Both the position numbers and the translations under genes were made by a program. 64,000 nucleotides of DNA from Candidatus Eiseniibacteriota bacterium (lineage in GTDB: Bacteria; Eisenbacteria; RBG-16-71-46; CAIMUX01). The stretch spans positions 9,074-73,073 of the forward strand of contig CAIMUX010000086.1 of NCBI GenBank assembly GCA_903844735.1. The letters run 5' to 3'. Numbering within the stretch: the first letter of the stretch is position 1; each line of letters begins with the position of its first letter. The notes below the pieces were generated by a model, which saw only the letters and a program-made list of their open reading frames with translations, searched no databases and was not told where the DNA came from. Shown piece after piece: positions 19,102 through 51,494 of this stretch.

Positions 19102-19105
<4 letters not shown>
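17633..19105 (+). CDS. Sensor histidine kinase (second, paralogous), cytoplasmic-type
   Basis: 'LAALGQMAATVAHELRNPLGAIQGFAGLL', 'LQNLYANAVQAM', 'VVRDTGCGLGADEVARIFQPFYTTRPGGTGLGLPLVRRIVEAHGG'. ATG 17633 overlaps the upstream stop (ATGA). Confidence 0.8.
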
Positions 19106-20535
<1,430 letters not shown>

Positions 20536-22911: not shown

Positions 22912-23154
22912 ATGACCCATGCTTTCATGTTTCTCGCCTTCCTGGGGGTCGCGACGGCCCGGGCTCAGGAAAACGGGACGATCGTGGCCTGGGGGGCGAA
23001 CTCGTTCGGCCAGTGCAACGTGCCGGGGCCCGACACCGGCTCCGTGGCGATTGCGACGGGTGGTCAGGACGCCCTGGGTCTCAGGATTCCGGCGCATGGG
23101 GCCTGTTGTCACACCGATGGTTCCTGCGCCTACGGGATCCAGGACAGACGATGA
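22912..23154 (+). CDS. Small secreted RCC1-repeat-like protein (possible fragment)
   Basis: '[40 protein letters not shown]' contains a signal peptide plus one RCC1-like 'WGxNxxGQ' motif. Only 80 aa; its stop overlaps the icmF ATG (ATGA). Weak. Confidence 0.2.
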
Positions 23155-26100
23155 CCCAATCCAACGAGCGATATCAGCTTCGTCACCAGGTGCGCGTCGT
23201 CACCGCGACCAGCCTCTTCGACGGTCATGACGCGGCGATCAACATCATGCGGCGCCTGATCCAGCAGGGCGGAGCCGAGGTCATCCACCTGGGCCACAAT
23301 CGCTCGGTGGCCGAGATTGTTGAGGCCGCTATCGAAGAGGACGCCCAGGCTGTGGCTGTTTCTTCGTATCAGGGTGGCCACAACGAGTTTTTCCGCTATA
23401 TGGTCGACATGCTGAGGGAGCGCGGCGCGGGGCACATCCGTGTCTTCGGTGGCGGCGGCGGTGTCATCCGTCCCGACGAGATCCGCGAGCTTGAAGCGTA
23501 TGGCGTCGAGCGCATCTACGATCCCGAGGACGGCCGCAAGCTAGGCCTTTCGGGCATGATCGACGATCTCCTGGAGCGCGCCGACTTCCACACCATCAGC
23601 GTTCCGGGCTCCGACGATCCGAGCACCAAGGGCGCGGCCATGCCCGACCCGAGCCGGCTCACGGTCGACGACCACGCCGCCGTGGCCCGGTTGATCACCC
23701 TGACCGAGATGGGTGCCGGCGCCTACGACTTCGTCTCCGCGGCGGTCCGCGAGCGGGCGGCGAAAAGTCAAGCCCCGGTCGTTGGCATCACCGGCACCGG
23801 CGGCGCGGGCAAGAGCTCGCTCGTCGACGAATTGGTGCGCCGATTACGTCACGACCATCCCGACAAGCGCCTGGCCGTGCTCTCCGCCGATCCTTCCAAG
23901 CGTCGCACCGGCGGGGCCCTGCTCGGCGACCGCATTCGCATGAACGCCATCCACGGCTCGGACGTTTACATGCGCTCTCTGGCCACCCGCGGCTCGCGCA
24001 CCGAATTGCCCGACACTATCCGCGACGCCATCGATGTCGTTAAGGCCGCCGGCTTCGATCTCATCCTCGTCGAGACCTCGGGCATCGGTCAGGGCGATAC
24101 CGCGGTCGTCGACATCTCCGACGTGGCCGTCTACGTCATGACCGCCGAATTCGGCGCCCCGACCCAGCTTGAGAAGATCGATATGATCGACTACGCCGAC
24201 CTCATTTCGATCAACAAATTCGAACGTAAGGGCTCCGACGACGCGCTGCGCGAGGTGCGCCGCCAGTTGCGCCGAGCCAGGAACGCATTCGATGTCGAGC
24301 TCGAAAACCTGCCCGTCTACGGCACCATCGCCTCCAAGTTCAACGACGAGGGTGTCAACGGCCTTTACGCCGGTCTGTGCGAGATCCTCGCCAGGAAAAA
24401 GGACGCGGGCTTTGTCTGCAAGTTGCCGGCCTCGGTCATCTCCCGCACATCCAGCCAGAAGTCGCTCATCCCGGTGGATCGCAACCGCTATCTCGGCGAG
24501 ATCGCGGACGCGGTCCGGGGCTACAAAGCCAGGGCCGCCACCGAGGCCGAGCTCGCCCGTCAACGTCAGCACCTTACCTGCGCCGCCGAGTTGCTCGACG
24601 GTTCGGCTCGCGAGGCCGCGCTGCTGAAGCGCGCTGAGATCGACAAGCGGCTCTCGCCCGCAAGCCTTAGCCTCATCGAAGGCTGGCAGTGCCTGCGCGA
24701 CGCCTACGCCGGCGATACCTTCACCTACAAGGTGCGCGACAAGGAATTCCATTTGAACATCAGCTCCGAGACGCTGGCCGGAACGAGGATCCCACTCGTT
24801 GTCGTACCCGACCTCAAGGACGATGGCGACAAGCTCAGCTACCTGATGCTCGAAAACGTCCCCGGCGCCTTCCCCTTCACCGGCGGCGTCTTCCCCTTCA
24901 AGCGCGATGGCGAGGATCCCAAGCGCCAATTCGCCGGCGAGGGCGGCCCGGTCAAGACCAACCGCCGCTTCCACTACCTGACGCGCAACGACGACGCGAA
25001 GCGCCTCTCCACCGCCTTCGACTCGGTGACACTCTACGGCGAGGATCCGGCACCGCGTCCCGACATCCTAGGCAAGGTCGGCGACTCGGGCGTCTCGATC
25101 TGTTCCCTCGAGGACATAAAGAAACTCTACGCCGGGTTCGATCTGCTCCACCCCGGCACGTCGGTTTCGATGACCATCAACGGGCCGGCGCCGATCATGC
25201 TCGCCTTCTTTTTCAACGCTGCCATCGATCAGCAGGTCGATCTCTTCGTTGCCGATCACGGCCGCGCCCCGAGTCCCGGGGAACACGCCATCATCCGCGC
25301 CAAGACCTTGTCCACGGTGCGCGGCACGGTGCAGGCCGACATCCTCAAGGAAGATCAGGCCCAGAACACTTGCATCTTCTCCACCGAGTTCGCGCTTCGG
25401 ATGATGGGCGATGTCCAGGAGTTCTTCATCGAGAACGACGTGCACAACTACTATTCGGTTTCGATTTCCGGCTACCACATCGCCGAGGCCGGGGCGAACC
25501 CCATCTCCCAGACGGCCTTCACCCTGGCCAACGGCTTCACCTACGTGGAGTACTTCCTCTCGCGCGGCTTTCCCATCGACTCGTTCGCCCCCAACCTCTC
25601 GTTCTTCTTTTCCAACGGCATGGACGCCGAGTACACGGTTATCGGCCGCGTGGCGCGCCGCATCTTCGCCGTGGCGATGCGCGAGAAGTACGGCGCGGCC
25701 GAGCGCAGCCAGAAGCTCAAGTACCACATCCAGACATCGGGCCGCTCGCTGCATGCCCAGGAGATCCAGTTCAACGATATCCGTACCACGTTGCAGGCGT
25801 TGCTCGCGTTCTACGACAACTGCAATTCGCTGCACACCAACAGCTACGACGAGGCGATCACCACTCCCACCGAGGAGTCGGTGCGCCGCGCCATGGCGAT
25901 TCAGCTCATCATCCTGCGCGAGTTCGGTCTCACCAAGAACGAGAACCCGTGGCAGGGCTCGTACGTGGTCGCGGAGCTGACCGAGTTGGTCGAAGAGGCG
26001 ATCCTCTGCGAGTTCGAGCGGCTCTCCGAGCGCGGCGGCGTGCTCGGCGCCATGGAGACCCAGTACCAGCGCGGCAAGATCCAGGACGAATCGATGCTCT

Positions 26101-26423
26101 ACGAGCACCGCAAGCACACCGGTGAGTTGCCGGTGATCGGCGTCAACACCTACCTTGCCGAGAACTCCGAGAACCTCATCCCGAAGAACGTGGAACTGCG
26201 CCGCGCCACCGACGAGGAGAAGCACGAGCAGATCGACAACGTCGCGGGCCTGCAAGAGCGCAACGCCGAGCGGATCGCCGCCTCTCTCGCCGAACTGCAA
26301 CGCGTGGCACTCACCGGCGGCAACACTTTCGCCCAGATGATGGAAACCGCCCGCTACGCATCCCTCGGCCAGATATCGAGCGCCCTGTACAAAGTCGGCG
26401 GCCAGTACCGACGCAGCATGTGA
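23151..26423 (+). CDS. icmF: Fused isobutyryl-CoA mutase IcmF (B12-binding domain + MeaB-like GTPase + acyl-CoA mutase catalytic domain)
   Basis: N-terminal B12-binding '[23 protein letters not shown]...[13 protein letters not shown]', MeaB P-loop '[18 protein letters not shown]', mutase-domain blocks ('...[17 protein letters not shown]', '[15 protein letters not shown]'). 1090 aa, consistent with IcmF. Confidence 0.85.
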
Positions 26424-31585: not shown

Positions 31586-32997
31586 GTTCGTCACTGCTCC
31601 ATTCGGGCATGGCCGATGTCGGCGCAACGCCGGCTGACCCCCGGGAGATCCTCGCCTCTATGATGGAGCGATGCCGGGAGCGGCTCGCCGACTGCGACCC
31701 GGTGCGCGAGACCGGCACCGTGCTGAAGGTGGCAGGCCCCCTGGTGGAGTCGACCGGGCCCAGCGCCGCAGTGGGTGAGATCTGCCCGATCTGGTCGCCC
31801 GGTTCCGATGAGCCGATTGTCGCCGAGGTGGTCGGTTTCCGCGATCACCGGCTTCTCCTCATGGCCTACGGCTCCATGGACGGCCTGCGTTCGGGCGCCG
31901 AAGTGCGATCCACCGGCCGACCGCTGCTGGCCCCGGTGGGCGAGCGGCTCCTTGGTCGCGTCCTTGACGGGCTTGGCCGACCCATCGACAGCAAGGGCCC
32001 GCTGGAAGGCACGGTGCAGGTTCCGGTAGCCGTGCGGCCGCCGCACCCGTTGGAGCGGGAGCTGATCCGCGAGCCTCTGGGTACCGGCATTCGGTCCATC
32101 GACGGGCTCACGACGGTGGGGCGGGGACAACGAATCGGCATCTTCGCCGGCAGCGGTGTGGGGAAGTCGGTGCTTCTGGGAACCATTGCGCGGCGCACCG
32201 ACGCCGAGGTCATCGTGGTCGCCCTGGTCGGTGAGCGCGGTCGCGAAGTCCGGGAGTTTCTCGAGCGCGATCTTACCGCGGAGGGGTTGGCCCGCTCGGT
32301 CGTGGTGGTGGCCACCTCGGATCAACCGCCGCTGGTCCGGGTCAAGGCGGCCCTTCTGGCCACGCGCATTGCCGAGCACTTCCGCGATGGCGGGAAGCAC
32401 GTGCTCTTGATGATGGACTCGCTCACCCGCTTTGCCATGGCCCAGCGCGAGGTCGGCCTCTTAGTCGGCGAGCCTCCGACGACAAAGGGATACACACCCT
32501 CCTGCTTCGCGGCCATGGCGCAGTTGCTCGAGCGCGCCGGCATGAGCGACCGCGGATCGGTGACCGGGCTCTACACCGTTTTGGTGGAAGGCGATGACCT
32601 CAACGACCCGGTGGCGGACGCGGCCCGCTCGGTGCTGGATGGGCACATCGTTCTCTCGCGGCGGCTGGCGGTGATGAATCACTACCCGGCGGTCGACGTG
32701 CTGGAGAGTGTCTCGCGCGTCATGCCCGAGGTAGCGCTGCCGGGGCAGATGGAAGCCGCCGCGCGTTTGCGCGAATGGCTGGCCGCCTGGCGTGAGTCGG
32801 AAGACTTGATCCAGCTCGGTGCCTACGTGGCGGGGACCAACCCGCTTACCGACCGGGCGATCGAGCGTCGGCCCGAAATCGTGCGCTTCCTGCGGCAGGC
32901 CTCCGGCGAGGGAACGCCCCTCGCGCGGACTGTCTCTTGGATGATCGAACTGGCGACGGCGGGGCCCGGCGGGGCGCCCGGGGAGGATGGTCGATGA
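31582..32997 (+). CDS. fliI: Flagellum-specific ATP synthase FliI
   Basis: Walker A 'GSGVGKSVLLG', 'VVALVGERGREVREFLE', 'LLMMDSLTRFAMAQREVGLLVGEPPTTKGYTPS'. 471 aa. Confidence 0.9.
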   Translation: MSSSLLHSGMADVGATPADPREILASMMERCRERLADCDPVRETGTVLKVAGPLVESTGPSAAVGEICPIWSPGSDEPIVAEVVGFRDHRLLLMAYGSMDGLRSGAEVRSTGRPLLAPVGERLLGRVLDGLGRPIDSKGPLEGTVQVPVAVRPPHPLERELIREPLGTGIRSIDGLTTVGRGQRIGIFAGSGVGKSVLLGTIARRTDAEVIVVALVGERGREVREFLERDLTAEGLARSVVVVATSDQPPLVRVKAALLATRIAEHFRDGGKHVLLMMDSLTRFAMAQREVGLLVGEPPTTKGYTPSCFAAMAQLLERAGMSDRGSVTGLYTVLVEGDDLNDPVADAARSVLDGHIVLSRRLAVMNHYPAVDVLESVSRVMPEVALPGQMEAAARLREWLAAWRESEDLIQLGAYVAGTNPLTDRAIERRPEIVRFLRQASGEGTPLARTVSWMIELATAGPGGAPGEDGR

Positions 32998-33437
32998 GGA
33001 AGTTCCGCTTCGCTCTGGAAGGGATCGAGCGGTTGCGCGCGCGCGACGTCCGCACGCACGAGGTGGAGTTGGCGAAGACGCGGGACGCTCTGGCGGAAGC
33101 GGAGAGAGCGCGGGAAGGAGCCGCGACGGCGCTGAGGCGCTCGGTGACGCTGGCTCCGACGGGGACCGTCGTACATGTGCGGCACCTCCTTGAGCTGGAC
33201 GCGGAGCGGCGTCGACTCACCGGCGAACTGCTGCGCGAGGAGACGCGGCTGGAGGGCTCCGGTCAGGCCATGGAGTCGGAGAGGATGAGACTCCTTGAAG
33301 CGCGGCGCGGGGCGCGCGCCGTGGAGATGCTGCGCGGGCGCCGGTATCTGGAGTTCCTTCAGGCTGTGCGGCACGAGGAACAGCAGATGACCGACGAAGT
33401 GGCGGCCCGGATCGTGCGGGAGTCGAGGGCGGCGTGA
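32994..33437 (+). CDS. fliJ: Flagellar export protein FliJ
   Basis: 147-aa coiled-coil protein 'MRKFRFALEGIERLRARDVRTHEVELAKTRDALAEAER...' directly after fliI. ATG overlaps the fliI stop. Confidence 0.65.
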   Translation: MRKFRFALEGIERLRARDVRTHEVELAKTRDALAEAERAREGAATALRRSVTLAPTGTVVHVRHLLELDAERRRLTGELLREETRLEGSGQAMESERMRLLEARRGARAVEMLRGRRYLEFLQAVRHEEQQMTDEVAARIVRESRAA

Positions 33438-34117
33438 CGCGGCGCGGGCAAGCGGGGAAAAGTGCCCTTGGCTCGCTCCTCGGACTTCTCTTCGGGGGAG
33501 GTGCGGTATTGGTCGTGGCCGCGCTCTTCATGACCGGCCTCGCCCAGCGGGAGATCCTGCCGCGAGTGCGGGCGCGGGCCGAGCGGGCGATGGAGCGCGC
33601 GACCTCGGCGGTGAAGCCGGGGAGTAAGGCGCCGGCCGGTGATGCAGCCGGGGCCAAAGGTGGCGCCGTTGGCGCAGGCATGGGCGGTCTCACGGCCGGA
33701 GTGGCCGACTCGGCGGGTGCGGCCGGTGGGTCCCGCGATTCGATTCAGGCTCTGTCCGCTCAGATGGATACACAGAAGTCCTTCTTGGCGCAGCGCGAGG
33801 CGGACCTGAAGCGCATGCGGGCGGGGATCGACAGTCTGCAACGCAAGGCGGATGTCGTCGATGACACCGAGCTGAAGCGTCAGGCCAAGCTCTTCGCCGC
33901 CATGAAAGCCGAAGAGGCGGCGCTCGTGTTAGGGGCGATGGACGACGTCACGCTGGCGTTGCTGCTCGATGCCATGAACGCCAAGGCGGCCGCCAAGGTG
34001 ATGGCCAGGCTGGACGCTGGACGCGTGGCCCGACTGGCAAGTCGAGCGGTGCATAAAGGGGAAATGACCGGCGCGGTCACGCTTGCCGGGCAGGAAGCCG
34101 GGCCCGCCGCGCGCTGA
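33434..34117 (+). CDS. MotE/YlxF-like flagellar protein (MgtE_N-like repeats)
   Basis: N-terminal TM. C-terminal 'AKLFAAMKAEEAALVLGAMDDVTLALLLDAMNAKAAAKVMARLDAGRVARL' shows the paired MgtE_N-like repeats typical of MotE/YlxF. Same position as ylxF in the Bacillus fla/che operon. Confidence 0.5.
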   Translation: MTRRGQAGKSALGSLLGLLFGGGAVLVVAALFMTGLAQREILPRVRARAERAMERATSAVKPGSKAPAGDAAGAKGGAVGAGMGGLTAGVADSAGAAGGSRDSIQALSAQMDTQKSFLAQREADLKRMRAGIDSLQRKADVVDDTELKRQAKLFAAMKAEEAALVLGAMDDVTLALLLDAMNAKAAAKVMARLDAGRVARLASRAVHKGEMTGAVTLAGQEAGPAAR

Positions 34118-34164
34118 GCGGTGGGGAAAGGCGCCGAACGCGGCGCCGAACCAGGAAGGAACGC

Positions 34165-37100
34165 ATGAATCCGCTGCCGTCTACGTTGACGCCGGCCCTG
34201 CCGGGTGCGGCTGCCGATCCGGGACTGCGGGGACGATTCCCCGAGGCTCCCGACGGCGGCGGCGCGCGCGTCCAAGACCGGGACGGGTTCGAGGCTGCAC
34301 TGCAGGCGGCGAGCGTCGCCGGTTCGTTCGTTCTCACTCGCGGGCCCGCGTTGTTTTCGCGGGTGAAGCAAATGGAAGACACGCTGGAGACCGCGGCGCC
34401 GGCGACGGCAAGCAATGTCGAACCGAGGGCGTTTCTAGCGCCGATGGAGCCCCTTTCTTCTTTGGGTGCCCCGAGGACCCTTGGCTCGAGCGGAGCGCCC
34501 GGAGGTCCGGCGACCGGGACCGATGCCGAGGTCGTCGAGGTAGCGGGCGCTGCGACGGTATCTGGAACGGTCTCGGTGCCTCATGGCTCGTCGGGAGTGG
34601 CCGGGTCCTCATCCACTGTCTTGACCTCGCCGGCGGCATTGACCTCGCCCGCGGCATTGACCTCGCCGGCGGCATTGACCTCGCCCGCGGCATTGACCTC
34701 GCCCGCGGCATTGACCTCGCCCGCGGCATTGACCTCGCCGGCCGCCGTGCGCACGCCGCGCATCGCCGCCTCCACGGTCGGTGCGGCGGGTGCGCTCCCG
34801 ACGGCCCGGGGTGCGCGCGCGACCCGGGTCGTGGATGGCTCTCCCTCGGCAGGGAACGTCTCGAACGGCGAGCGGTTGGGCGACGTCGGGGGACGGATCA
34901 TCGAGGCCTCCGGACGTGTTGTCGGCCTCTTTGACCTGGAGGACGGCGGGGCGCTGCCGGCGGCTGGTTCGGTCCCCGCTGGTGTAGGCGCGGGAATCGC
35001 CACGCCGGGGGAGGCGACCTCCGGAGCTGTTCCGCGTGCCGCCGGCGTAGTGGCGGGCGCGAAGAGCGCCCCCGCCGGCGATGCGGTTGTGTCCATGGCT
35101 CCTGGATCCGGGATCGCTTCCAGTCCGTCGTCCGCGAGGGTGTCCGAAACGACGAGGTCCGGCGCGGCGATGACCTCTCTCTCCAGCTCGGCTTCCGGTT
35201 CCGCAGGAAGTCGGGCGATGCCGGTCTCCAACCCGGTCTTGGCTGTCGGCATGGTTGCCGGCCCTTCGGTGGAGGGTGCGCCACCAACCCCGGTGTCGGT
35301 CCCCGCTTCCGGTTCGAATGCGGGTCAGACGAGGGGTGGCGCTGCCAAGGGCGCGGCGCCGGTACCGGTTTCCCCATCGGGCTCGGTTAGTGATCAGACG
35401 ACAATCGGTCCTCTGCCGGTCTCCGCGCGCTCTGCCGCACGGGCTTCCACACTAGGTTCGGCTCTCGGGCAAATGACCAATGCCCCGATGACAGCCTCCG
35501 TGCCAGGACCCGCACCAACACCCCTACCGCCCTCCGCGACAGCCTTCGGACGCGCCGAGGAATCGGGCTCGACTGGCGGAGAGAGAGTGCGGAGTGCGAC
35601 GACAGCCCCGGTAGCGGTTGCGATGCCGGTATCGACCTGCACGTCGACTCCTGAACCGTTGGTGAGTGGCCCGGGGCCGGGCGCCGCGCCGGTTTCCGCG
35701 CCGGGCTCTGCGCCGGGCTCTGCGCCGTGCTCCGCGTCGGTCTCAGCGCCGCTCCCCGCGCCGGTCTCCGTACCGGTTTCCCAGCCGATCTCTGTGCCGG
35801 CCTCCGCGCCGGTTCCCGTATCAGGCTCAACTCCTGATCAGACAGCCCGGAGTGCGGCGCCGGCCTTGGCCTTCGACTCGGCTGCCGGTCAAATGATCAG
35901 CGGCCCGATCCCGGTCTCTGTGCCGGCCTCGGCGCCGATCCGCTCGCCGGTTTCCGCGTCGGTCTCAGCGCCGGTCCCCGCGCCGGCGTCCAGGTCGGTC
36001 TCCGCGCCGATCTCCGTACCGATCTCCGTACCGGTCTCCGTACCGGTTTCCCAGCCGATCTCTGTGCCGGCCTCCGCGCCAGTTTCCGTATCAGGCTCAA
36101 CTCCTGATCAGACAGCCCGGAGTGCGGCGCCGGCCTTGGCGTTCGACTCGGCTGCCGGTCAAATGATCAGCGGCCCGATCCCGGTCTCTGTGCCGGCCTC
36201 GGCGCCGATCCGCTCGCCGGTTTCCGCGTCGGTCTCCGCGCCGGTCCCCGCGCCGGCTTCCAGGTCGGTCTCCGCGCCGGTCTTCGTACCGGTTTCCCAT
36301 CCGATCTCTGTGCCTGCCTCCGCGTCAGTTCCCGTATCAGGCTCAACTCCTGATCAGACAGCCCGGAGTGCGGCGCCGGCCTTGGCGTTCGACTCGGCTG
36401 CCGGTCAACGAATCAGCGGTCCGATGCCGGTCTCTGTGCCATCCTCCGCGCCGATCCCCTCGCCGATCCCCGGGCCGGCTTTCGCTTCGGTCTCAGTGCC
36501 GATCCCTGCGCCGATCCCCGCGCCAGTCTCCCAGCCGATCTCTGTGCCGGCCTCTGCGCCAGTCCCCATATCAGACTCAACTTTTGATCAGACAGTCCGG
36601 AGTGCGGCGCCGGTCTTGGCATTCGAACCTGCTCCCGGTCAGTTGGCCGGCGACCCGATGCCGGTTTCCGTGCCGGCCTCTGCGGCGGTCTCCTTGCCGG
36701 TCTTGGCAGGGATTCCCACGCGAACTTCCGTGCTAGCCTCGGCATCGATCCCCGCGCGGTCTTCCTTGTCAGCCTCGGTGCCGACTTCCTTGCCGGATTC
36801 CACGCCGAGTTCGGTGGCGGCCTCCGCACCGAACTCACGATTGGTTCCCCCATCCGGCTCGGCTCCTGCTCAGACGGTGCAGAGCGTGGCGCCGACTCCG
36901 GTGTCGACTTCGATACCGGCCTCTGCGTCCGATTCGATTTCTGTTCCGATGACGGGCGGCCCGCTGCCGGTGTCCGCGACGGCCTCTCCACCGGCTTCCG
37001 CCTCGGTTTTCGCGCCGGCCTTCGCGTCGTCCGCCGCGCCGACTTCCGTGCCGAACCCGGTGTCGATTTCATCGCGATCTTCGGTGGCGCACTCAACTCC

Positions 37101-38463
37101 TGATCAGACAACGTCGAGTGCGACGATAGCCCCGGCGGCCGTTTCGGTTCCGATTTCGGCGTCAGGCTCGATTCCCGCGCAGATGACGGGCATCGGGACT
37201 CCGGTCTCCGTGCCGGTCTCCGTGCCGATCACAGCGCCAAGTGCGGTTCCCGGTCAGACAGTGGAGAGTTCGGCGAAGGTTCCGGTGGCTGTTTCGATGC
37301 CTGCGTCCAAGGTAACTCGCGGGCACACTGCGCGAAGTGCTGTGACGGCCCCGGCCGTCGGCGCGACGCCGGCCCCCGCGTACGGTTCGGGCCCCGATCT
37401 GTTGACGAGCGGCCCGATGCAGGCAGCTGGACCGGTCTTCGCGCCGTCCGCCGTGCCGGCATCCGTCCGGGCCTCCGTGCCGGCCCCTGAGCCGTTTTCT
37501 GCGCCGGCCGCCGAGGTCAAAGCGGTGTTCGCGCAGGGTGGGTCCGGTACAGGGAGCGCGCCGGCCGAAGCAACAGGCCCAGGCGTGACGCTGAGCCGTG
37601 GCGAACGCCCAGCGAGTCTGCCCACCGCGATTAACGTGGCTCGGACAGTGCGGTCTTCCCAAGCTTCTGTCGGGACCAGCGAGGCGACCCCTGTGTCCGA
37701 GAACCCCCTGTTCCCGAACCCGATGCCTCAGGTCCGTGCCGAAGTCTCCTCGGTGGGGGAACCCAGCGCCGGCGGTGCATCTTTGACCCCGGGCTCTTCG
37801 GCGATAGCCGCGGCAGTGCATCTACCGGCGATTCAGACCTCCACGCCGAGCGCGTCGACGGCTCCTCTGGGGCGAGTGCTCGAGTTGGCCAACCCGGTTG
37901 CGCCCCCGAATCTACCGACGGCTGTGCCCCACGCCATCAAGCTCGCCCTGCGCGAGGGGGTCGGCGAGGTGCGGATCCGCCTCTGGCCACCGGAGCTGGG
38001 TGGCATCCTGGTTCGGCTGCGGGTCAACGGGACCGAGGTCACCGCGCGGATCGAGGCCGAGCGGACGGACGTGCGGGGAATGCTTGAGTCGATGCGATCG
38101 GACCTCGGGCGGGGGATGCAGGAGGCCGGGCTGAAACTGACGCGATTCGAGATCGGTCCGGCACGCCCGAACGAATCATTGCGGGCCTTGGAGACAGTGA
38201 TCCCGGCGAGCGCGGCCTCGCAGGGCGGTGGGGGCGGGACCCCGGATCGCCAGGGTCAAGGCGCCCCGGCGGGAAATCTCGGGACGTCCGGCGGCTTCAA
38301 TCAGGGCGATCCCGGCCCACGCGGCGAGCACGCCGCCGGCGGACGCGCCGGAAGCGGGCGGGAAGGAACGGGCCTAGCGCCCGAGAATCGTAGGGAGAGA
38401 AGCGAGGCGGGCCTTGTGGTTCGCCATGTGCGCGGCGAAGCGGCGATTGACGCCTGGGCCTGA
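34165..38463 (+). CDS. fliK: Giant hook-length control protein FliK (1432 aa) with expanded repetitive Pro/Ala/Ser/Val-rich ruler region
   Basis: C-terminal '[66 protein letters not shown]' is the Flg_hook / FliK C-terminal domain. It lies between ylxF-like and flgD as in Bacillus. The central roughly 1000 aa is low-complexity tandem repeat. Confidence 0.75.
34621..34746 (+). repeat. 18-nt perfect microsatellite x7 inside fliK encoding (ALTSPA)7
   Basis: 'ttgacctcgccggcggca / ttgacctcgcccgcggca' alternate seven times. The encoded peptide is '[18 protein letters not shown]...'. Confidence 0.85.
35771..36700 (+). repeat. Tandem array of ~240-270-nt near-identical repeats (about 3.5 copies) inside fliK; more diverged copies extend from ~35390 to ~37240
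   Basis: Units begin at 35771, 36041, 36287 and ~36527 ('taccggtttcccagccgatctctgtgccggcctccgcgcc...'). Encoded unit is '...[78 protein letters not shown]...'. Confidence 0.8.
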
Positions 38464-38489: not shown

Positions 38490-39155
38490 ATGAACATTAG
38501 CAGCACGACAGCGGCCACAGCCGCGACCGCCACCACAGGCGTGCAGGGAACGTCGCGCGAGGCGCTGGGAAAGGACGACTTCCTCAAGCTCCTGATCACG
38601 CAATTGCAAAACCAGGACCCGCTGTCACCCATGGACAACAGTCAGTTTCTGGCCCAGATGGCACAGTTCAGCTCGTTGGAGCAGATGCAAAACCTGAACG
38701 CCAGTTTCGACGAGTCGATGCTGATCTCGCAGTCCCTGAGCAATTCGTCCGCCGCGGGTTTCATCGGGCGGCATGTCCGAGCCGCCGGTGATGGCGTGAC
38801 TCTCGGTACCACCGGGTCGGTGGAGCTGGGGTACTTCCTGCCATCGGATGCCGCGACAGTCACCTTGACGGTGCTGGACGAACAGGGTCGCGAGGTGCGC
38901 ACGCTGACAGCCGATGAGACCACCGCGGGCGCGCACAGACTCGAGTGGGACGGGGCCGACCTGGACGGTCGTCGGGTTGCCGCGGGCTCGTACACCTTCG
39001 AGGTCTCAGCCAAGGACGCGGACGGGCTCGACGTCAGCGCGACCTCCGTCGTCACTGGCCTGGTGGACGGGATCACCTTCCAGAACGGCAGTGCCTACCT
39101 GCTGGTGGACGGCCGCGAGGTTCCGCTCTCTGAAGTGCTCGAGGTCTATCAATGA
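38490..39155 (+). CDS. flgD: Flagellar hook capping protein FlgD (with FlgD Ig-like domain)
   Basis: '[44 protein letters not shown]' is the FlgD N-terminal signature. C-terminal '[49 protein letters not shown]' is a FlgD Ig-like domain. Confidence 0.85.
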
Positions 39156-39327: not shown

Positions 39328-41028
39328 ATGATGCGTTCACTTTTTTCGGGTGTTTCCGGATTGGCCAACAACATGGTCCGCATGGACGTGATCGGGAACA
39401 ATGTGGCCAACGTCAACACCATCGCGTACAAGGCCTCTCGGGTCACCTTCGAGGAGACGATGACCCAGATGCTCAAGGGATCGACTGCCCCCATGGGAAC
39501 GTTGGGCGGCTCCAACCCCACACAAGTGGGGACGGGTGCTCGACTCGGCACCATCGACAGTATTTTTACCCAGGGAAGTATGGAGGCGACCGGGATCGAC
39601 ACCGACCTCGGTATCCAGGGACGTGCCTTTTTCGTGGTCTCCGATGGGACCAACCAGTTCTATTCCCGGTCCGGCTCGTTCCAGCTCGACGGCCGCGGCA
39701 ACCTCGTCAATCCTGCAAACGGATTCACCCTCCAGGGATTCAGCTACAACCGCGTCACCGACCAATACGACAACCTGCCGGAGGCGATCAAGCTGCCGCT
39801 CGGCGAGGTGGAGCCGGCCAAGGCAACCGGCGTACTCTCGTTCCGCGGCAACTTCGACGCCGACTCGGAACCGCGGGGGACGCGTACGGGCTCGGCCGTC
39901 CTTTGGGGCGGGACCGGCAGCCCGGTCGCCATGGACACGCTGCTGGATGACATGAAGGCCGACCCGGGCGGCGTCCTCGACCTGCTTACGGTGGGTGACA
40001 CCATCGCCTACAGCGCCACCGTCGGTGGCAACCCGATTGGCGGCAACCTGACAGTTGACGCTGTCTCGACGATGGGCGACCTCGTGACTGCGATCCAGAC
40101 CTCTCTCAACTCGGTTTCTGGGGTAGCGGGGATCACTGTGAGCTTGGACAGCAACGGGCGCATCCAGGTTGCCACGCCGGACGGCCTGGGCAAGCGCGCG
40201 GAGGTGACCGGGCTTGTCATTCAGGCGGAGGATCCGACTTTGGTCCCGCGCGATGACTTCAATGGTCTCGTCGCCCTGACGGATACGCAGTCGGCGCGCG
40301 ACGCCAGCGTCTTCATCGATGAAAGCACCGTCTATGACTCCCTCGGCTTCAGTCACGTCATTCGGACCGAGTTCACTCGTCTCCTCGGGGCCAATCAGTT
40401 CACCTGGGCAGCGACGGTTGATGACGGCACGACCCCGATCCTGCAAGGCGGCACGGGCAAAGTGACCTTCAACGGCGACGGCTCCTTCAACGGGCTCTTT
40501 TTCGATGCCGCGGGCGATGTCATCCCGACCAAGCTGTCGATCTCCCCGACCACCGGTGCAAAGACGCCGCTGGAGGTGGAGCTCGACCCCGGAGTTCCCG
40601 GTGGCTTCGCCGGCATGACCCTCGTCCGCGCGCCGGCCACCCTCGCGGCAACCAGTGATGGCTTCAGCAAGGGGACCGCGACCGACTTCCGCATCGATCG
40701 AACCGGCACGGTGATCAGCATCTTCTCGAACGGCGTGACCCGACCCGTGGCGAGGGTCGCTCTTTCCGAGTTCGTCAACCCTTCCGGCCTAGTGCGTTAC
40801 GGGGACAACCTGTTCCAGGCCTCGACCAACTCGGGCAAGGCGCTGGTGGGGCAGGCCGGCGGAGCGGTGGAGGCGACGGTTTTCAGTGGCTCGCTGGAGC
40901 AGTCGAATGTCGATCTCGCACGGGAGTTCACCAACATGATCCTTGCACAGCGGGGATTTCAAGCGAGTGCTCGGGTCATCACCACGAGTGATGAGGTTCT
41001 CACCGAGCTGATCAACCTGAAGCGGTAA
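39328..41028 (+). CDS. flgE: Flagellar hook protein FlgE
   Basis: 'MMRSLFSGVSGLANNMVRMDVIGNNVANVNTIAYKASRVTFEE' and C-terminal 'EQSNVDLAREFTNMILAQRGFQASARVITTSDEVLTELINLKR'. RBS CAGGAGGAAAAA. Confidence 0.9.
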   Translation: MMRSLFSGVSGLANNMVRMDVIGNNVANVNTIAYKASRVTFEETMTQMLKGSTAPMGTLGGSNPTQVGTGARLGTIDSIFTQGSMEATGIDTDLGIQGRAFFVVSDGTNQFYSRSGSFQLDGRGNLVNPANGFTLQGFSYNRVTDQYDNLPEAIKLPLGEVEPAKATGVLSFRGNFDADSEPRGTRTGSAVLWGGTGSPVAMDTLLDDMKADPGGVLDLLTVGDTIAYSATVGGNPIGGNLTVDAVSTMGDLVTAIQTSLNSVSGVAGITVSLDSNGRIQVATPDGLGKRAEVTGLVIQAEDPTLVPRDDFNGLVALTDTQSARDASVFIDESTVYDSLGFSHVIRTEFTRLLGANQFTWAATVDDGTTPILQGGTGKVTFNGDGSFNGLFFDAAGDVIPTKLSISPTTGAKTPLEVELDPGVPGGFAGMTLVRAPATLAATSDGFSKGTATDFRIDRTGTVISIFSNGVTRPVARVALSEFVNPSGLVRYGDNLFQASTNSGKALVGQAGGAVEATVFSGSLEQSNVDLAREFTNMILAQRGFQASARVITTSDEVLTELINLKR

Positions 41029-45119: not shown

Positions 45120-45893
45120 ATGATGCCGCTGCCGTCGCCGGACCGGATCGAGACCTTTCTGCTGGTCTTTGTTCGCTGCCTCACCTTCTGGTCGATCGGC
45201 CCCCTGCTGGCCGATCGGAAGGTGCCGGTGCAGGTAAAAGTCCTGGGCGGGCTGGTCACGGCGATTGCGGTCTTCTCCTCGGTCGACACAACGCGCTGGA
45301 TCAAGACCGACTCGCTCCTCGTGCTGGCCTCGCTGGTGGCGCGAGAGGTCCTCATGGGCGCCGCCCTCGGGCTGGTGGCTTCGCTGGTCTTCCTTGCTGT
45401 GCGCATGGCGGGGAGTCTTCTCGGCGTGCAGATGGGCTTCTCCATCGCCAGCGTGATGGACCCGCAGACCCAGACCGAGATGTCGCTCCTGTCGGAGGTC
45501 CAAGAACTGCTGGCGGTGTTCCTCTTCCTCCTGGTGGACGGGCACCACCGGCTCTTTCAGGCCTTGGCGGTTTCTTTAGACCGAGTCCCCCCGGGGGCCA
45601 TCGGCGACCCCGGGATCCTCGTGGGGGCTCTGGTTCCGCTGATCGGGGCGATGTTCGGAATGATCATCCAGGTCGGGGCGCCGATCCTGGGCGCCATGTT
45701 TCTGACCGATGCCGCCTTGGGATTTGTCGCCCGGGCGGTTCCCCAAATGAACGTCTTCATCGTGGGGATCCCGGTCAAGATCGCGGCCGGAATGGCGTTA
45801 CTTGTTGTCACGGCGCCGCTCTTCTCTCGTCTGCTCCTCGTCCAGTTCAGCCGGATGGACCAGCAACTGCTCACTGTCTTGCGTGCCATGTAG
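45120..45893 (+). CDS. fliR: Flagellar export apparatus protein FliR
   Basis: 257-aa polytopic protein 'MMPLPSPDRIETFLLVFVRCLTFWSIGPLL...GAPILGAMFLTDAALGFVARAVPQMNVFIVGIPVKIAAGMALLVVTAP'. Confidence 0.85.
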   Translation: MMPLPSPDRIETFLLVFVRCLTFWSIGPLLADRKVPVQVKVLGGLVTAIAVFSSVDTTRWIKTDSLLVLASLVAREVLMGAALGLVASLVFLAVRMAGSLLGVQMGFSIASVMDPQTQTEMSLLSEVQELLAVFLFLLVDGHHRLFQALAVSLDRVPPGAIGDPGILVGALVPLIGAMFGMIIQVGAPILGAMFLTDAALGFVARAVPQMNVFIVGIPVKIAAGMALLVVTAPLFSRLLLVQFSRMDQQLLTVLRAM

Positions 45894-46262: not shown

Positions 46263-47717
46263 ATGCCCGACCCTTCCGATCCAAAGCGTCCCCGACTCGT
46301 CTTTCCCGGCTCCGATGCCGATTCCGCCCCCGCCCGCCGCATCGTGTCTCCCGGCGCCGACGCGGCGGCGGCACCCGGACCCGAGGCTCCGGCACCGACG
46401 CGGCGGCCCGGTCTCATCCTCCCGCCCGGCGCGGGACGCGAGGTGCCCGAAGACCTGCCCGAGTACCCGCGCCTGCGACCGCTCGGACTCGCGCGCGTGA
46501 GTGACGGCCGACGTGAAATGCTGCTGGTGAGCGACCCGACGGGTGTGATCCAGGGCCAGCCGGCCCTGTCGATGGAGGCGCTGCCGATGCTGCAGTTGCT
46601 CGATGGCACGACGTCGCTGACCGACATCACGAGCACGCTCATGCGTGGCAGTAAGGATCTGCGCGTCGCGAGTTTGGTGCGCGATTTCGTTGCCCGACTC
46701 GACCAGATGCTGCTCCTCGATTCGCCTCGATTCCACCAGGCGCTGCAGATGCTGCGTGACCGGTACCATCAGCTCGAGATCCGCCCCGCGGCGCTCGAGA
46801 ACCAAGCCTATCCGGGCCAGAGAGCCGAGCTGGAGGCGTTTCTCGACGATCACTTTGCCGAGGCCGCGGCGATGCGCGAGCGCGCCGTACCGCCGGCCGC
46901 CGCCCAGCCGACCGACGCGCGATCGGCTACCGCACCGGCGGCGCCGCCGCGCGCGATCCTGTCGCCGCACCTCGACCCGCGCCGGGCGGGTGCGGTCATC
47001 GCGCGGGCGATGGCGGAGATCGGCCCCCGGCAGGCCCGGCCGCTGCGCGTCGTCATCTTCGGGACCGGCCACTCGTTGCTGGACGACCTGTTCGCTCTCA
47101 CGCGCAAGCACTTCGAGACTCCGCTCGGCAAGGCTCGCTGCGACACCGCGTTCGTCGACCGCGTCGCCTCGCGCCTCGGCGAGTCCGCCTACCGCGGCGA
47201 GTTGGCGCATCGCGACGAGCATTCGATCGAGTTTCAGGTGATCTACCTCCTGCGACTGCTCAAGGAACATCCGTTCACGATCGTGCCGATCCTGTGCGGC
47301 GGCTTCCACTCGCTTCTCGCGGAGGGCCAAACGGCGCGCGAGGCGCCCGAGTTCGAACGACTGATCGAGGCCGTGCGGGAGGCCGAGCGCGAGCTGAGCG
47401 GTCGCACGCTCTACATCGCCGGTGTCGACTTCTCCCACGTCGGACCCCGCTTCGGCCACCCGCCGATCGACGCGCGCGTGAAAGACGAGACCGAAGCGGT
47501 CGATCGCGCGGGTCTCACCGCGGCGCTCGCGGGCGACGCCGAAGGCTGGTTCCGGGCGATCGCCGCGCAGGACGACCGTACGAACATCTGCGGTTTCGCG
47601 CCGACGTACGCTATGCTGCGCTGTGCGGATGTCACCGATGGACGATTGCTCCATTACGAACAGTGCGACGAGCCGGACGGCTCCACGGTTACGGTCGCCG
47701 CCGCGGTCTGGGGGTAG
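46263..47717 (+). CDS. Fusion protein: N-terminal PqqD-like RiPP-recognition-element (RRE) domain + C-terminal MEMO1-family (AmmeMemoRadiSam system protein B-like) domain
   Basis: Residues ~70-160 'LRPLGLARVSDGRREMLLVSDPTGVIQGQPALSMEALPMLQLLDGTTSLTDITSTLMRGSKDLRVASLVRDFVARLDQMLLLD' fit the PqqD pattern (xLNxtaxxIwxlLDGxxtlxeIxxxLxxxyxxdxxxxxxDvxxFlxxLxxxgLL). The C-terminal 300 aa carry MEMO1 blocks 'SPHLDPRRAGAV', 'VIFGTGHS', 'DEHSIEFQVIYL', 'IVPILCGG', 'VDFSHVGPRFG', 'NICGFAPTYAML'. Confidence 0.6.
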   Translation: MPDPSDPKRPRLVFPGSDADSAPARRIVSPGADAAAAPGPEAPAPTRRPGLILPPGAGREVPEDLPEYPRLRPLGLARVSDGRREMLLVSDPTGVIQGQPALSMEALPMLQLLDGTTSLTDITSTLMRGSKDLRVASLVRDFVARLDQMLLLDSPRFHQALQMLRDRYHQLEIRPAALENQAYPGQRAELEAFLDDHFAEAAAMRERAVPPAAAQPTDARSATAPAAPPRAILSPHLDPRRAGAVIARAMAEIGPRQARPLRVVIFGTGHSLLDDLFALTRKHFETPLGKARCDTAFVDRVASRLGESAYRGELAHRDEHSIEFQVIYLLRLLKEHPFTIVPILCGGFHSLLAEGQTAREAPEFERLIEAVREAERELSGRTLYIAGVDFSHVGPRFGHPPIDARVKDETEAVDRAGLTAALAGDAEGWFRAIAAQDDRTNICGFAPTYAMLRCADVTDGRLLHYEQCDEPDGSTVTVAAAVWG

Positions 47718-48205
47718 GCTGCCTCAGCACATTTCCGCTGAGCGGTCCCCAAACCGTCCGTGGGAGAGTGAAGGGGGGTATCCGGGGAAAGTGAGTCTCC
47801 CCGCCCGCGAGGCCGAGCGGCGGGCGCGCACGCGTCACAGGAGGTCAGGAAGCTGCGGATTCTGGACCGGCTTCGGGCTTCCGCGACACCGTTGCTGTTC
47901 ATCATCGCCGCTGTGGGCAGCGTTCTGCCTGGTGCCGGCCGCGAGGAACGGACCGGTTCCCTTCGGGCCTGCCCGTCGCCGCGGCCGGATCGGCGGAGAT
48001 CAAGGTCACAAATCCGTATATTGTTACGGAATTCCACGGCCGATACGGAACCGGTGTGCAATCGAGTGGTTTCCAGGACCGCCCGCCTGTGACTCCGCGA
48101 GGGGTCCACGTGGCGGGAGCGCTGCATCGCTGCGCCCGCGTAGGACGAACTGGCGATCCGGCTGGTGACACCCCCGGTCTAGGTCAAGAGGAGGCAATCC
48201 ACACC

Positions 48206-49381
48206 ATGTCATCCCGGATTCGTTCCCTGATCGCCTTAGCCCTGTCGATGCTTCTCCTGGCCGGAGGCCAGGCTTTGGCTCGCAAACCGAAGGCATCCGC
48301 GTCACCGAATCCGCTCCCGGCCGCGGTCCTGGGGGACGGACGCATCGCAATCCCCGCCTCCATGACCCCGGCTCTCCCGTTCGAGATCAACGCTCCCGGC
48401 AGCTACTGTCTGGTCGGGAACCGCCATTGCGCCGAGGACGGCATCCGTATCAACGCCGACGACGTCACCATCGACCTTTCGGGATTCACGCTCGCCGGGC
48501 CCGACTCCGGCGGTTCCGTCGGAATCCTCATGAAAGGCCGCAAGAATGTGGAGGTCAAGAACGGAACAGTCCGGGACTTCGGCAATCGCGGCATCTTCGA
48601 CAAGAACGAGGGGGGCATGGCGCAAGGCAAACGGATCATCGGCGTGCGTGTCGTCTCGAACGGAGGCTGCGGCATCTGCCTGGGCGGAGACGGCAACCTC
48701 ATCCGTGACTGCTACGTCGCGGACAACAAGGGGACCGGCGCCTGTGTCGAGCGGACGATTGTGGAGAGGAGCGTCTTCGTCAACAACACCACCGGCGGGA
48801 TCGCCTGCGGCAACTACAGCCTCGTCGCTGGAAACCTCGTCACGAAAACCGAAAAGGCCGGGATCTTTGCCCGCAACGGCTGCACCATCAGGGACAACAC
48901 GGTCTGCGAGGCGGGCAACACGGGGATCTACGGCGATTATGGCTGCCTGATCGACGGTAACGTTGCCTGCGAAAACAACCAGGCGAACATGCCCTGGGCC
49001 TATGCCGGCATCAAGACGGTGGGCGACTGCATCCTTCGCAACAATCTCACGCGGGGTAACTTGCAGAACAACATCTGGGTGATCCGCTCGGGGAACGTCG
49101 TCGAGGACAACCTCGCCACCGCCCCGGCCGACACTCTCGGGAACGGCTACGCCTTCGGTAACAAGTCCAACTACTTCGCCAACAACAAGGCTTCGGGCAA
49201 CCAGACCGATTTCGTTGGCGAGCTACCCGAAGGCCCGGGCGACGGTGGTGGAAACCTCGCTTTGGAGCACTACGTGCCGCTTCCTCTGCCTGCTCCTTCC
49301 CCTCCGCCGCCGACTCCTGTTGCCGATACACCCAGCGGCGGCGTGCCCCCCGCCGGCCGAACGAAAGGCCCCGACAAGTAG
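48206..49381 (+). CDS. Secreted right-handed parallel beta-helix repeat protein (Cys-rich, pectin-lyase-fold-like) with Pro-rich C-terminal tail
   Basis: Signal peptide 'MSSRIRSLIALALSMLLLAGGQALA'. Repeated 'GIxxxNxxxVxIxNxTV.., GNLIRDCYVADNKGTGACVE, NNTTGGIACGNYSLVAGNLV, CEAGNTGIYGDYGCLIDGNV, NNLTRGNLQNNIWV' units typical of PbH1 beta-helix coils. Ends 'PLPLPAPSPPPPTPVADTPSGGVPPAGRTKGPDK'. RBS AAGAGGAGG. Confidence 0.6.
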   Translation: MSSRIRSLIALALSMLLLAGGQALARKPKASASPNPLPAAVLGDGRIAIPASMTPALPFEINAPGSYCLVGNRHCAEDGIRINADDVTIDLSGFTLAGPDSGGSVGILMKGRKNVEVKNGTVRDFGNRGIFDKNEGGMAQGKRIIGVRVVSNGGCGICLGGDGNLIRDCYVADNKGTGACVERTIVERSVFVNNTTGGIACGNYSLVAGNLVTKTEKAGIFARNGCTIRDNTVCEAGNTGIYGDYGCLIDGNVACENNQANMPWAYAGIKTVGDCILRNNLTRGNLQNNIWVIRSGNVVEDNLATAPADTLGNGYAFGNKSNYFANNKASGNQTDFVGELPEGPGDGGGNLALEHYVPLPLPAPSPPPPTPVADTPSGGVPPAGRTKGPDK

Positions 49382-50084
49382 CAGGGCCCACAGGTGATGC
49401 CGAGATGCCCTCGGACCTGCTTCAAGGCCCGGCCCTTCATGGATGCGATCACCCGGGATCGCCGCCCCCAGGAGCGTCGTCATGGTCACCGTCAACATCC
49501 ATGAAGCCAGACCCGGTTCTCGTAGCTGGTCGATTCCGCAGTCAAAGGCGAAGCGTATGTGATAACGAAGGCGGGTGGGCCGCTCGTGAAGGTGACGGCG
49601 CTGGACGCCCATGCGGCACCGCGGCGGCTGGACTTCCTCGCCGGCGAGATCGCCATGCCCGACGATGTCGACCGCATGGGCGAAGCAGAAATCGAAGCTC
49701 TGTTCGGGAGCGGTTCGTCAAGTCCGCCGCGTTCGCGTGGAAGTCCGCCATCGGCACATGCTCGATCGAGAGGTCGAGAAGCAGTCGCACCGCTCGGTCG
49801 AACCGTCTGTTCGCCCAGTGGGCCTTCGCCCGTCCGAAGGGGTCCGCGAGTTCCCGGTCCAGACCCTGCTCCAGCAGGAAGCGGTTCGAGTGATCGAGAT
49901 CGCCCAGCGGCGCGACACCATCGAGGCGCAACCTCCGGGGCAGGATCCGGCTTGCACGCCGCGGCACGGAGGGGCAGGTCGTCCTTACGATGGTGGCGAG
50001 ATCGCCGGTAACGACCAGTTCCCTGCGAACGGCGTCTCATTGTGGGGGGCTGGCGCCTTCTGCCGCTTGTCGGGGGCCTCGGTT

Positions 50085-50408: not shown

Positions 50409-51494
50409 TTGGCCAACGATAACTACGGAGAGCGCACCGAGAGCGCGACACCCAAGCGACGGGAGGAAGCCCGCAATGAAGGTAAAGTCGCGCGGAGTAC
50501 CGAGTTAACCAACGCCCTGGCCCTCCTGGCCGGTGTTGCCGCGTTGTCATTTCTGGGCGGCCGGCTGATGCAGCGCCTCTCCGACCTCTTTCGCTCACTG
50601 CTTGGCACTTCTCCGTCGGGGCTCGCCACCGAGGCCGGCGTCTACTTCGCTTTCCAGCGGCTCTCGCTCCAGATCACCGTGATCTTGGCCCCGCTGCTGA
50701 TCAGCCTGATCGCGGTTGGACTGGCTTCCAACGTCCTGCAAGTCGGCTTCATGCTGACGGGCAAGCCGATCTCGCCGCGCTGGTCCTTGATCGATCCGAT
50801 CGAGGGGTTCAAGAGGATCTTGTCGCTGCGTTCGGTCACCGAACTGCTCAAGTCGATCCTCAAAGTTTCGATCATCGGCCTCATCGCCTGGGTGACGCTG
50901 AAGTCCGACCTCGACCGGCTCGTCCCGCTCACCGGTGCGGACGGACCGACCCTGGTAGGCCAGGTGGGGGCCGCCACCGTCCGCCTCGGCTTGCGCGTCG
51001 GCCTGGCCCTTCTCGTTCTCGGCATCCTCGACTACGGCTACCAGCGCTGGGAGTTCGAGCGCTCCATCCGCATGAGCAGACAGGAACTTGAGGAAGAGCA
51101 GAAACAGACCGAAGGCGATCCGCAGGTGAAGGCGCGGGTGCGCGTGGCGCAAAGGCTTCTGGCGCGGCGCCGGATGATGGTCGACGTGGCGAAGGCTGAC
51201 GTTGTGGTCACCAACCCGACGCACTACGCGGTAGCGCTCAAGTACGACCGGCCGACGATGCCGGCTCCGTTGGTCGTGGCCAAAGGGATGCGCAAGCTGG
51301 CCGAGCGGATCAAAGAGGTGGCGAAGGAGAATCGAGTGCCGGTGGTCGAGGACCCGCCGTTGGCTCGACTTCTCTACAAGGAGTGCGAGGTGGGTTCGGC
51401 GATTCCGGTGTCGGTATACCAGGCGGTGGCGCGGGTGCTCGCGTATGTCTGGAAACTCCGGGGACGGACGCAGGGAGGCCGGGTCGCGGCCTGA
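50409..51494 (+). CDS. flhB: Flagellar export apparatus protein FlhB
   Basis: 'GERTESATPKRREEARNEGKVARSTEL' N-terminus and the 'NPTHYAVAL' autocleavage motif (NPTH). Non-ATG start per ORF track. Confidence 0.9.
   Translation: MANDNYGERTESATPKRREEARNEGKVARSTELTNALALLAGVAALSFLGGRLMQRLSDLFRSLLGTSPSGLATEAGVYFAFQRLSLQITVILAPLLISLIAVGLASNVLQVGFMLTGKPISPRWSLIDPIEGFKRILSLRSVTELLKSILKVSIIGLIAWVTLKSDLDRLVPLTGADGPTLVGQVGAATVRLGLRVGLALLVLGILDYGYQRWEFERSIRMSRQELEEEQKQTEGDPQVKARVRVAQRLLARRRMMVDVAKADVVVTNPTHYAVALKYDRPTMPAPLVVAKGMRKLAERIKEVAKENRVPVVEDPPLARLLYKECEVGSAIPVSVYQAVARVLAYVWKLRGRTQGGRVAA

Follow-up and report, generated by a model that had tools for sequence, protein, structure and literature searches.

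A 1432-residue FliK with an expanded central tract in an uncultured Eiseniibacteriota lineage, and its possible bearing on flagellar hook length

A giant FliK encoded by one intact gene

We analysed a 64-kb window of DNA from a Candidatus Eiseniibacteriota bacterium (contig CAIMUX010000086.1), the coordinates of which are used throughout, and found in its flagellar cluster a fliK gene of exceptional length. The gene is one uninterrupted open reading frame (ORF) at 34165..38463 on the forward strand, with an ATG start, 1432 codons and a stop. Its product is very probably a working FliK switch protein, and the excess length is almost wholly accounted for by a tract that separates the N-terminal region from the C-terminal switch domain. 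FliKs well above 1000 amino acids (aa) are already present in related metagenome-assembled genomes (MAGs), where one has already been annotated, and the window protein is thus an extreme member of its family. The statement as a whole, that this is the organism's functional fliK and that it works by a ruler-type mechanism with an enlarged spacer, is the one we favour, with reservations.

The intactness of the gene is well supported, confirming the single 1432-aa ORF called in an earlier sequence-only reading of this DNA. Given the local base composition (70% G+C), 25 stop codons were expected in 1432 codons and none was observed (P ~9e-12). The five other frames of the interval each contained 14-37 stops, and their longest open stretch was at most 280 codons. 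A chance ORF in high-GC DNA is ruled out by this test. At both ends the ORF shows homology, in one and the same frame, to the corresponding termini of FliK from relatives. A fusion of two genes and a frameshifted pseudogene were also considered; they are ruled out by termini that both resemble those of FliK, share one frame and are syntenic.

The identification as FliK is backed by the domain, its fold, the conserved termini and the position in the operon. Pfam recognised a single family in the protein, Flg_hook (PF02120), at aa 1258-1335 (E 7.4e-15; 55 bits against a cut-off of 29.8), and the 40-residue Flg_hook peptide quoted in the sequence-only reading is present at aa 1269-1308. A profile built from the C-terminal domain and 33 homologues matched the nuclear magnetic resonance structure of the Salmonella FliK C-terminal domain (2RRL_A, E 4.7e-18) and, more weakly, that of PscP (5CUK). 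An AlphaFold2 (AF2) model of the domain reached a predicted local distance difference test (pLDDT) score of 81. When this model was compared with the PDB by Foldseek, 2RRL ranked first (E 3e-6, TMq 0.72) and PscP 5CUK second, and these were the sole significant matches. The gene order around fliK is fliI-fliJ-(MgtE_N gene)-fliK-flgD-flgE.

The two ends of the protein also carry features in common with other FliKs. The N-terminal region presumably comprises the export signal and the part that interacts with hook and cap, and its first ~55 aa are conserved also in an 862-aa relative. Within this stretch lies an FxxxL motif at aa 42-46, with a Phe shared by all 12 long FliKs aligned. The motif resembles the gate-recognition motif described for early flagellar export substrates (PMC8983047), and may have the same role. 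At the other end, the last five residues, IDAWA, take the form xDAWA or xDxRV in relatives (xD[AIV][WR][AV] in the long FliKs of related uncultured bacteria). This ending may be compared with LDIRI, the last five residues of Caulobacter FliK, which are essential for its function (PMC8545394).

The expanded central tract is probably disordered and is partly repetitive

Ala (17.9%), Ser (15.1%), Pro (14.0%), Val (10.3%) and Gly (9.8%) dominate the composition of the whole protein. The central tract is richer still in Ser, Pro and Val (S 19%, A 18%, P 17%, V 12%) and contains only 7% charged residues. Its 894 aa face only ~120 aa in the closest relative. A single-sequence AF2 run on aa 291-1432 gave no secondary structure for aa 291-1249, at pLDDT 25-37, and left the 97-aa C-terminal tail without predicted structure. 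Recovery of the C-terminal domain in the same run (pLDDT 52-75) acts as an internal control. The sequence-only reading had described a central Pro/Ala/Ser/Val repeat tract that was probably disordered; the repeats are real and the lack of modelled structure is consistent with disorder.

Repeats of several kinds occur in the gene. Upstream of the tract, in the N-terminal region, an 18-bp tandem array encodes a 42-aa LTSPAA run. Within the tract, motif anchoring and MAFFT alignment defined four tandem units, each opening with PVS[QH]PISVPASA and together making up ~330 aa. At the DNA level a 270-bp unit occurs twice with 97% identity, and degenerate 234-bp copies continue to 36757. Between units 1 and 2, 7 of 246 nt are different; four codons are changed synonymously and three non-synonymously. 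Degenerate S-x-P-x-Q-T...PVSVP modules extend more widely, from about aa 380 to 1050. Approximately 25% of the residues of the window protein fall in repeated 6-mers, compared with 0-6% in the other long FliKs, and it alone among the long FliKs compared is rich in recent internal repeats.

Salmonella FliK is divided into FliK-N (residues 1-207), a Pro-rich linker (208-267), the FliK-C core (268-352) and a disordered tail (353-405) (PMC6972891). We read the same order of parts in the window protein, from a presumed N-terminal export and measuring region through a Pro-rich, probably disordered linker to the switch core and a tail with no predicted structure. It also shares the PF02120 family, the C-terminal fold seen in 2RRL and the genomic partners FlgD, FlgE and an FlhB with the NPTH motif. 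The two proteins differ in the region between N-terminal part and core, which is ~950 aa long in the window protein and ~60 aa in Salmonella; in the former it is rich in Ser, Ala, Pro and Val, partly built of tandem repeats, and non-helical. In our reading, the central tract would be the counterpart of the Pro-rich linker/ruler segment of Salmonella, enlarged about fifteen-fold.

Long FliKs recur in related bacteria

An exhaustive HMMER search with the C-terminal domain, covering 1.84 billion representative proteins, returned 2265 homologues at E <= 1e-3. Length statistics were taken from the best 150 of these matches, 83 of which were judged complete-looking, with a median of 535 aa. None of the single-domain FliKs among these best 150 is longer than the window protein, which is 2.7 times as long as the median and 3.5 times as long as the FliK of Salmonella (405 aa; PMC6126814), so that the three- to four-fold excess claimed in the sequence-only reading is a fair estimate. 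Single-domain relatives among the top matches measured 666 (P0003), 850, 862 (P0007), 919, 923, 970 (P0004), 1121 (P0010), 1237 (P0020) and 1343 aa (P0025, from GCA_964652115.1). The 1237-aa protein (MBK8231927.1) is labelled by NCBI as 'flagellar hook-length control protein FliK [Candidatus Eisenbacteria bacterium]'. All 12 complete single-domain matches at E <= 1e-10 were at least 535 aa long, and eight were at least 850 aa.

Like the window protein, the long FliKs of related uncultured bacteria have one C-terminal Flg_hook domain and a low-complexity middle rich in Ala, Ser, Pro, Gly and Thr, and they share its FxxxL motif and terminal motif. The order fliJ-X-fliK-flgD-flgE is common to the genes for the 666-, 862-, 1121- and 1343-aa proteins (genome L045, genome L001, the contig of P0010 and L046, respectively). 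The organism with the 1343-aa FliK is fairly distant from that of the window (FlgE 60% and FliM 53% identical), and long FliKs therefore span a deep clade. On the sequences compared, giant FliK size is a trait of the lineage, not a singularity.

Other large FliK-like proteins reach their size by a different route. P0018 (1894 aa), P0016 (912 aa) and P0068 (1161 aa), returned by the same HMMER search, each carry three to five Flg_hook matches along their length, whilst the window protein has exactly one and an expanded linker. A multi-domain architecture was thus ruled out as the cause of its size. In P0018, large blocks are duplicated almost exactly, which may be a real or an assembly duplication.

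The closest relatives show how labile the middle of the protein is. In genome L045, which encodes the 666-aa FliK (P0003), FliI, FliG and FlgD are 92%, 88% and 83% identical to those of the window; in L001, with the 862-aa FliK, FliI is 91% and FlgD 74% identical. The C-terminal part of the window protein (aa 1185-1432) aligns to aa 419-666 of P0003 with 60% identity. By contrast, the FliK middles of the three organisms are mutually unrelated in sequence, and the relatives' proteins are shorter by 570-770 aa in this non-homologous region. Since the ends are conserved whilst the middles differ in both length and sequence, the ruler middle is evolving fast in both respects. The middle of the 862-aa FliK (L001 7385-9973) is more charged, being rich in Arg, Asp, Glu and Gln, and contains short repeats of its own, DATPKLL.R.ARE.AP and AQDA.P. 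These are unrelated to the repeats in the window protein; the ruler has thus expanded independently in relatives and with different sequence. The comparison across relatives proposed in the sequence-only reading thus yielded recurrent, very long FliKs; a FliK of ~400 aa and otherwise identical sequence was not encountered among them, the closest relative's being 666 aa long with ends 37-60% identical.

Further searches added little to this set. A word-indexed homology search returned one 179-aa fragment with the C-terminal domain as query and fragments of 102-176 aa with a 34-sequence profile. Two metagenome scans, with the C-terminal 208 aa and with a clade profile, found no close relatives, and an exact look-up of the protein in indexed collections gave no record. 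Literature searches on giant natural FliKs, on FliK versus hook length across species and on Eisenbacteria flagella turned up no description of such proteins. The long hooks of spirochaetes and epsilonproteobacteria, put forward as precedents in the sequence-only reading, were not confirmed in the texts consulted.

Ruler extrapolation and alternative explanations

Experiments in two systems connect the length of such proteins to that of the structure they control. Salmonella FliKs engineered to 363-785 aa keep hook length under tight control at 42-135 nm, each residue adding 0.2 nm (PMC6126814), and hooks become shorter when parts of the Pro-rich linker are deleted (PMC6972891). The size of the Yersinia enterocolitica ruler YscP is linear with needle length and ranges from 452 to 538 aa among strains, with internal repeats of 14, 25 and 46 aa that vary in number (PMC3469391). 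As a mechanism, YscP offers the nearest parallel to tuning by repeats. As the window protein is presumed to be, it is secreted and acts as a ruler, and both have a T3S4 switch domain at the C-terminus, which in the window protein matches the fold of PscP 5CUK. YscP differs in serving an injectisome, in being helical and in the extent of its natural variation, which is below 100 aa against hundreds of residues here.

If the window protein acts as FliK does in Salmonella, it would be exported at intervals, N-terminus leading, while rod and hook grow, passing through them with its extended, non-helical middle spanning the channel. A longer spacer would then delay switching and give a longer hook, and in-frame gain or loss of repeats would be a simple way of retuning hook length. 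With the Salmonella slope, 55 + 0.2 x (1432 - 405) gives an extrapolated hook length of ~260 nm; the corresponding values are ~107 nm for the 666-aa and ~146 nm for the 862-aa relative. The first value lies far beyond the tested Salmonella range (at most 785 aa and 135 nm), and the full slope is unlikely to be valid for a FliK of 1432 aa. Whether the hook would be clearly longer than 100 nm is, in our judgement, an even call. It is doubtful that hooks of the lineage reach ~200-300 nm, several times any characterised, with a more than two-fold spread between near relatives brought about by expansion and contraction of tandem repeats.

Several points weigh against the reading we favour. The long-hook prediction is an extrapolation from engineered Salmonella, made for an uncultured lineage. 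The engineered series ends at 785 aa and its inserts were helical YscP sequence, not a Pro-rich coil, and Salmonella hooks longer than ~75 nm impair swimming motility (PMC6126814). FliK length differs 2.1-fold between close relatives whose middles are unrelated; if scaling were linear, these near relatives would be ~150 nm of hook apart. The G+C content at third codon positions is 0.62-0.78 in the tract, somewhat lower than the ~0.80-0.83 of neighbouring genes, which is what rapidly evolving sequence of low complexity should show. For the 270-bp units, which are 97% identical, the copy number is that given by the assembly.

The extreme lability of the middle makes it a serious rival explanation that FliK length has been decoupled from hook length. 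The tract would then be a fast-evolving, near-neutral spacer of low complexity, drifting through slippage at replication and through duplication. Hooks would be roughly normal, with export kinetics, the switch domain and the conserved first ~290 aa as the main determinants of their length, for example if the spacer stays compact or slack. Non-homologous middles in organisms with FliI 91-92% identical, and conservation confined to the termini, are in line with this, as are the synonymous and non-synonymous differences between the newest units, the steady size of FlgE across the clade (563-566 aa) and the cost of long hooks in Salmonella (PMC6126814). However, all tested insertions and deletions in FliK and YscP shifted length linearly (PMC6126814, PMC3469391, PMC6972891), and the lengths of the 12 complete single-domain relatives suggest that long size is retained rather than random. 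The 4.3-kb frame has also stayed open in a secreted, and hence lost, protein, indicating that its length is tolerated or selected. We therefore regard decoupling as rather unlikely, though serious.

Two further explanations concern the tract itself. Mis-assembled repeats could have inflated the gene, or low-complexity sequence could have been joined into fliK as a chimera. Short-read assemblies can mis-count repeats such as the two 270-bp units and the near-perfect 18-bp array, and the exact protein is not in indexed collections. Collapsing the four units to one and the array to one copy would nonetheless leave ~1150 aa, only about a quarter of the residues lie in repeated 6-mers, and the units differ in length and carry distinguishing substitutions. 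A single frame stays open between N- and C-termini that are both of FliK type, and independent assemblies contain FliKs of 1121-1343 aa with the same synteny. An artefact of this kind is very improbable. Alternatively, the tract could have a second, extracellular role, as a polymer that interacts with surface or matrix or as a glycosylation substrate, with its size selected for that. The tract may resemble Pro/Ser-rich extended linkers. FliK is released outside the cell, in line with its cited reassignment as extracellular, and fliK is reported to affect traits other than motility in Bacillus thuringiensis and H. pylori. Pfam found Flg_hook alone, however, and there is no supporting domain, motif or homology; AF2 gives the tract no structure, and its sequence is not conserved even in close relatives. 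Such a role is very unlikely, and the ruler-type mechanism with an enlarged spacer remains our preferred reading.

Features of the gene and its neighbourhood

The coordinates of fliK, its parts and its partner genes are collected in Table 1. The wider flagellar cluster, apparently complete, reads fliF-G-H-I-J-(MgtE_N)-fliK-flgD-flgE-fliL-M-N-O ... fliR ... flhB-flhA-flhF and also includes flgB/C-like rod genes and a gene for a MinD/ParA-type ATPase.

Table 1. Positions of fliK, its sequence features and selected neighbouring genes
Feature	Position	Strand	Details
fliJ	32937..33437	+	Pfam and alignment to relative
MgtE_N-domain gene	33434..34117	+	between fliJ and fliK; Pfam; syntenic in relatives
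Shine-Dalgarno-like AGGAAGGA	34153..34160	+	4 nt 5' of fliK ATG; read from the sequence
fliK ORF	34165..38463	+	1432 aa; ORF list, Pfam, stop-codon chance test
FliK N-terminal region	34165..35034	+	aa 1-290; aligns to aa 1-298 of 666-aa P0003, 37% identity
FxxxL motif, F42-E-A-A-L46	34288..34302	+	alignment of 12 long FliKs
18-bp tandem array	34621..34739	+	in frame; 6.6 near-perfect copies; (LTSPAA)x7, aa 153-194
Expanded central tract (putative linker/ruler)	35035..37716	+	aa 291-1184, 894 aa
Four tandem units	35773..36756	+	90, 82, 78 and 78 aa; aa 537-864
Flg_hook / T3S4 switch core	37897..38169	+	aa 1245-1335; Pfam, PDB profile, AF2, Foldseek
C-terminal tail, Gly/Ala/Arg-rich	38170..38460	+	aa 1336-1432, 97 aa
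Terminal pentapeptide IDAWA	38446..38460	+	last five residues, conserved
flgD (hook cap)	38490..39155	+	directly 3' of fliK; Pfam
flgE (hook protein)	39337..41028	+	563 aa, ordinary size; Pfam
flhB (switch partner of FliK-C)	50409..51494	+	NPTH autocleavage motif at residue 269

Upstream of fliK, the fliJ ORF as listed begins with TTG and shares its first 61 nt with the end of fliI. Because the 147-aa FliJ of a relative aligns to aa 20-166 of this ORF, the true start is probably ~57 nt downstream. The product of the MgtE_N gene is ~59% identical to its relatives, compared with 83-92% for FliG, FliI, FliJ and FlgD (L045), and its N-terminal half is Ala/Gly-rich and of low complexity.

Downstream, fliR (45120-45893) is separated from flhB by three seemingly non-flagellar ORFs (46263-49893). 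One is Memo-like (46263-47717); the others encode 441 aa (48056-49381) and 162 aa (49405-49893), and neither of these two has a Pfam match. Just upstream of the flagellar cluster, 23013-26423 encodes a 1136-aa fusion of B12-binding, MeaB GTPase and methylmalonyl-CoA-mutase domains (IcmF-like). A sigma-54 response-regulator activator is encoded at 19102-20535, also upstream, and FlhF (an SRP54-type GTPase) with a MinD/ParA-type, FlhG-like ATPase at 53566-55918, downstream in the cluster region. The activator and the FlhF/FlhG-like pair would fit sigma-54-controlled flagella of regulated number and placement.

Implications for the ruler model

The ruler model of hook length rests on engineered FliKs of 363-785 aa from one species. 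The proteins described here form a natural series of orthologues, with 666, 862 and 1432 aa in close relatives and 850-1343 aa more widely, in which conserved ends flank very different spacers. The series offers a natural test of whether a disordered Pro-rich chain measures like a helical one. It also bears on the longest hook that a flagellum tolerates and on repeat slippage as a tuner of hook mechanics.

In these phyla, annotation pipelines and comparative work should allow for FliKs considerably longer than 1000 aa. Either outcome for hook length would be informative. If hooks of ~200-300 nm proved true, the lineage would possess an evolvable natural 'tape measure' far outside the tested range of rulers. 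If hooks were normal despite a 1432-aa FliK, the ruler relation would fail for disordered spacers, and the mechanism would be constrained to an equal degree.

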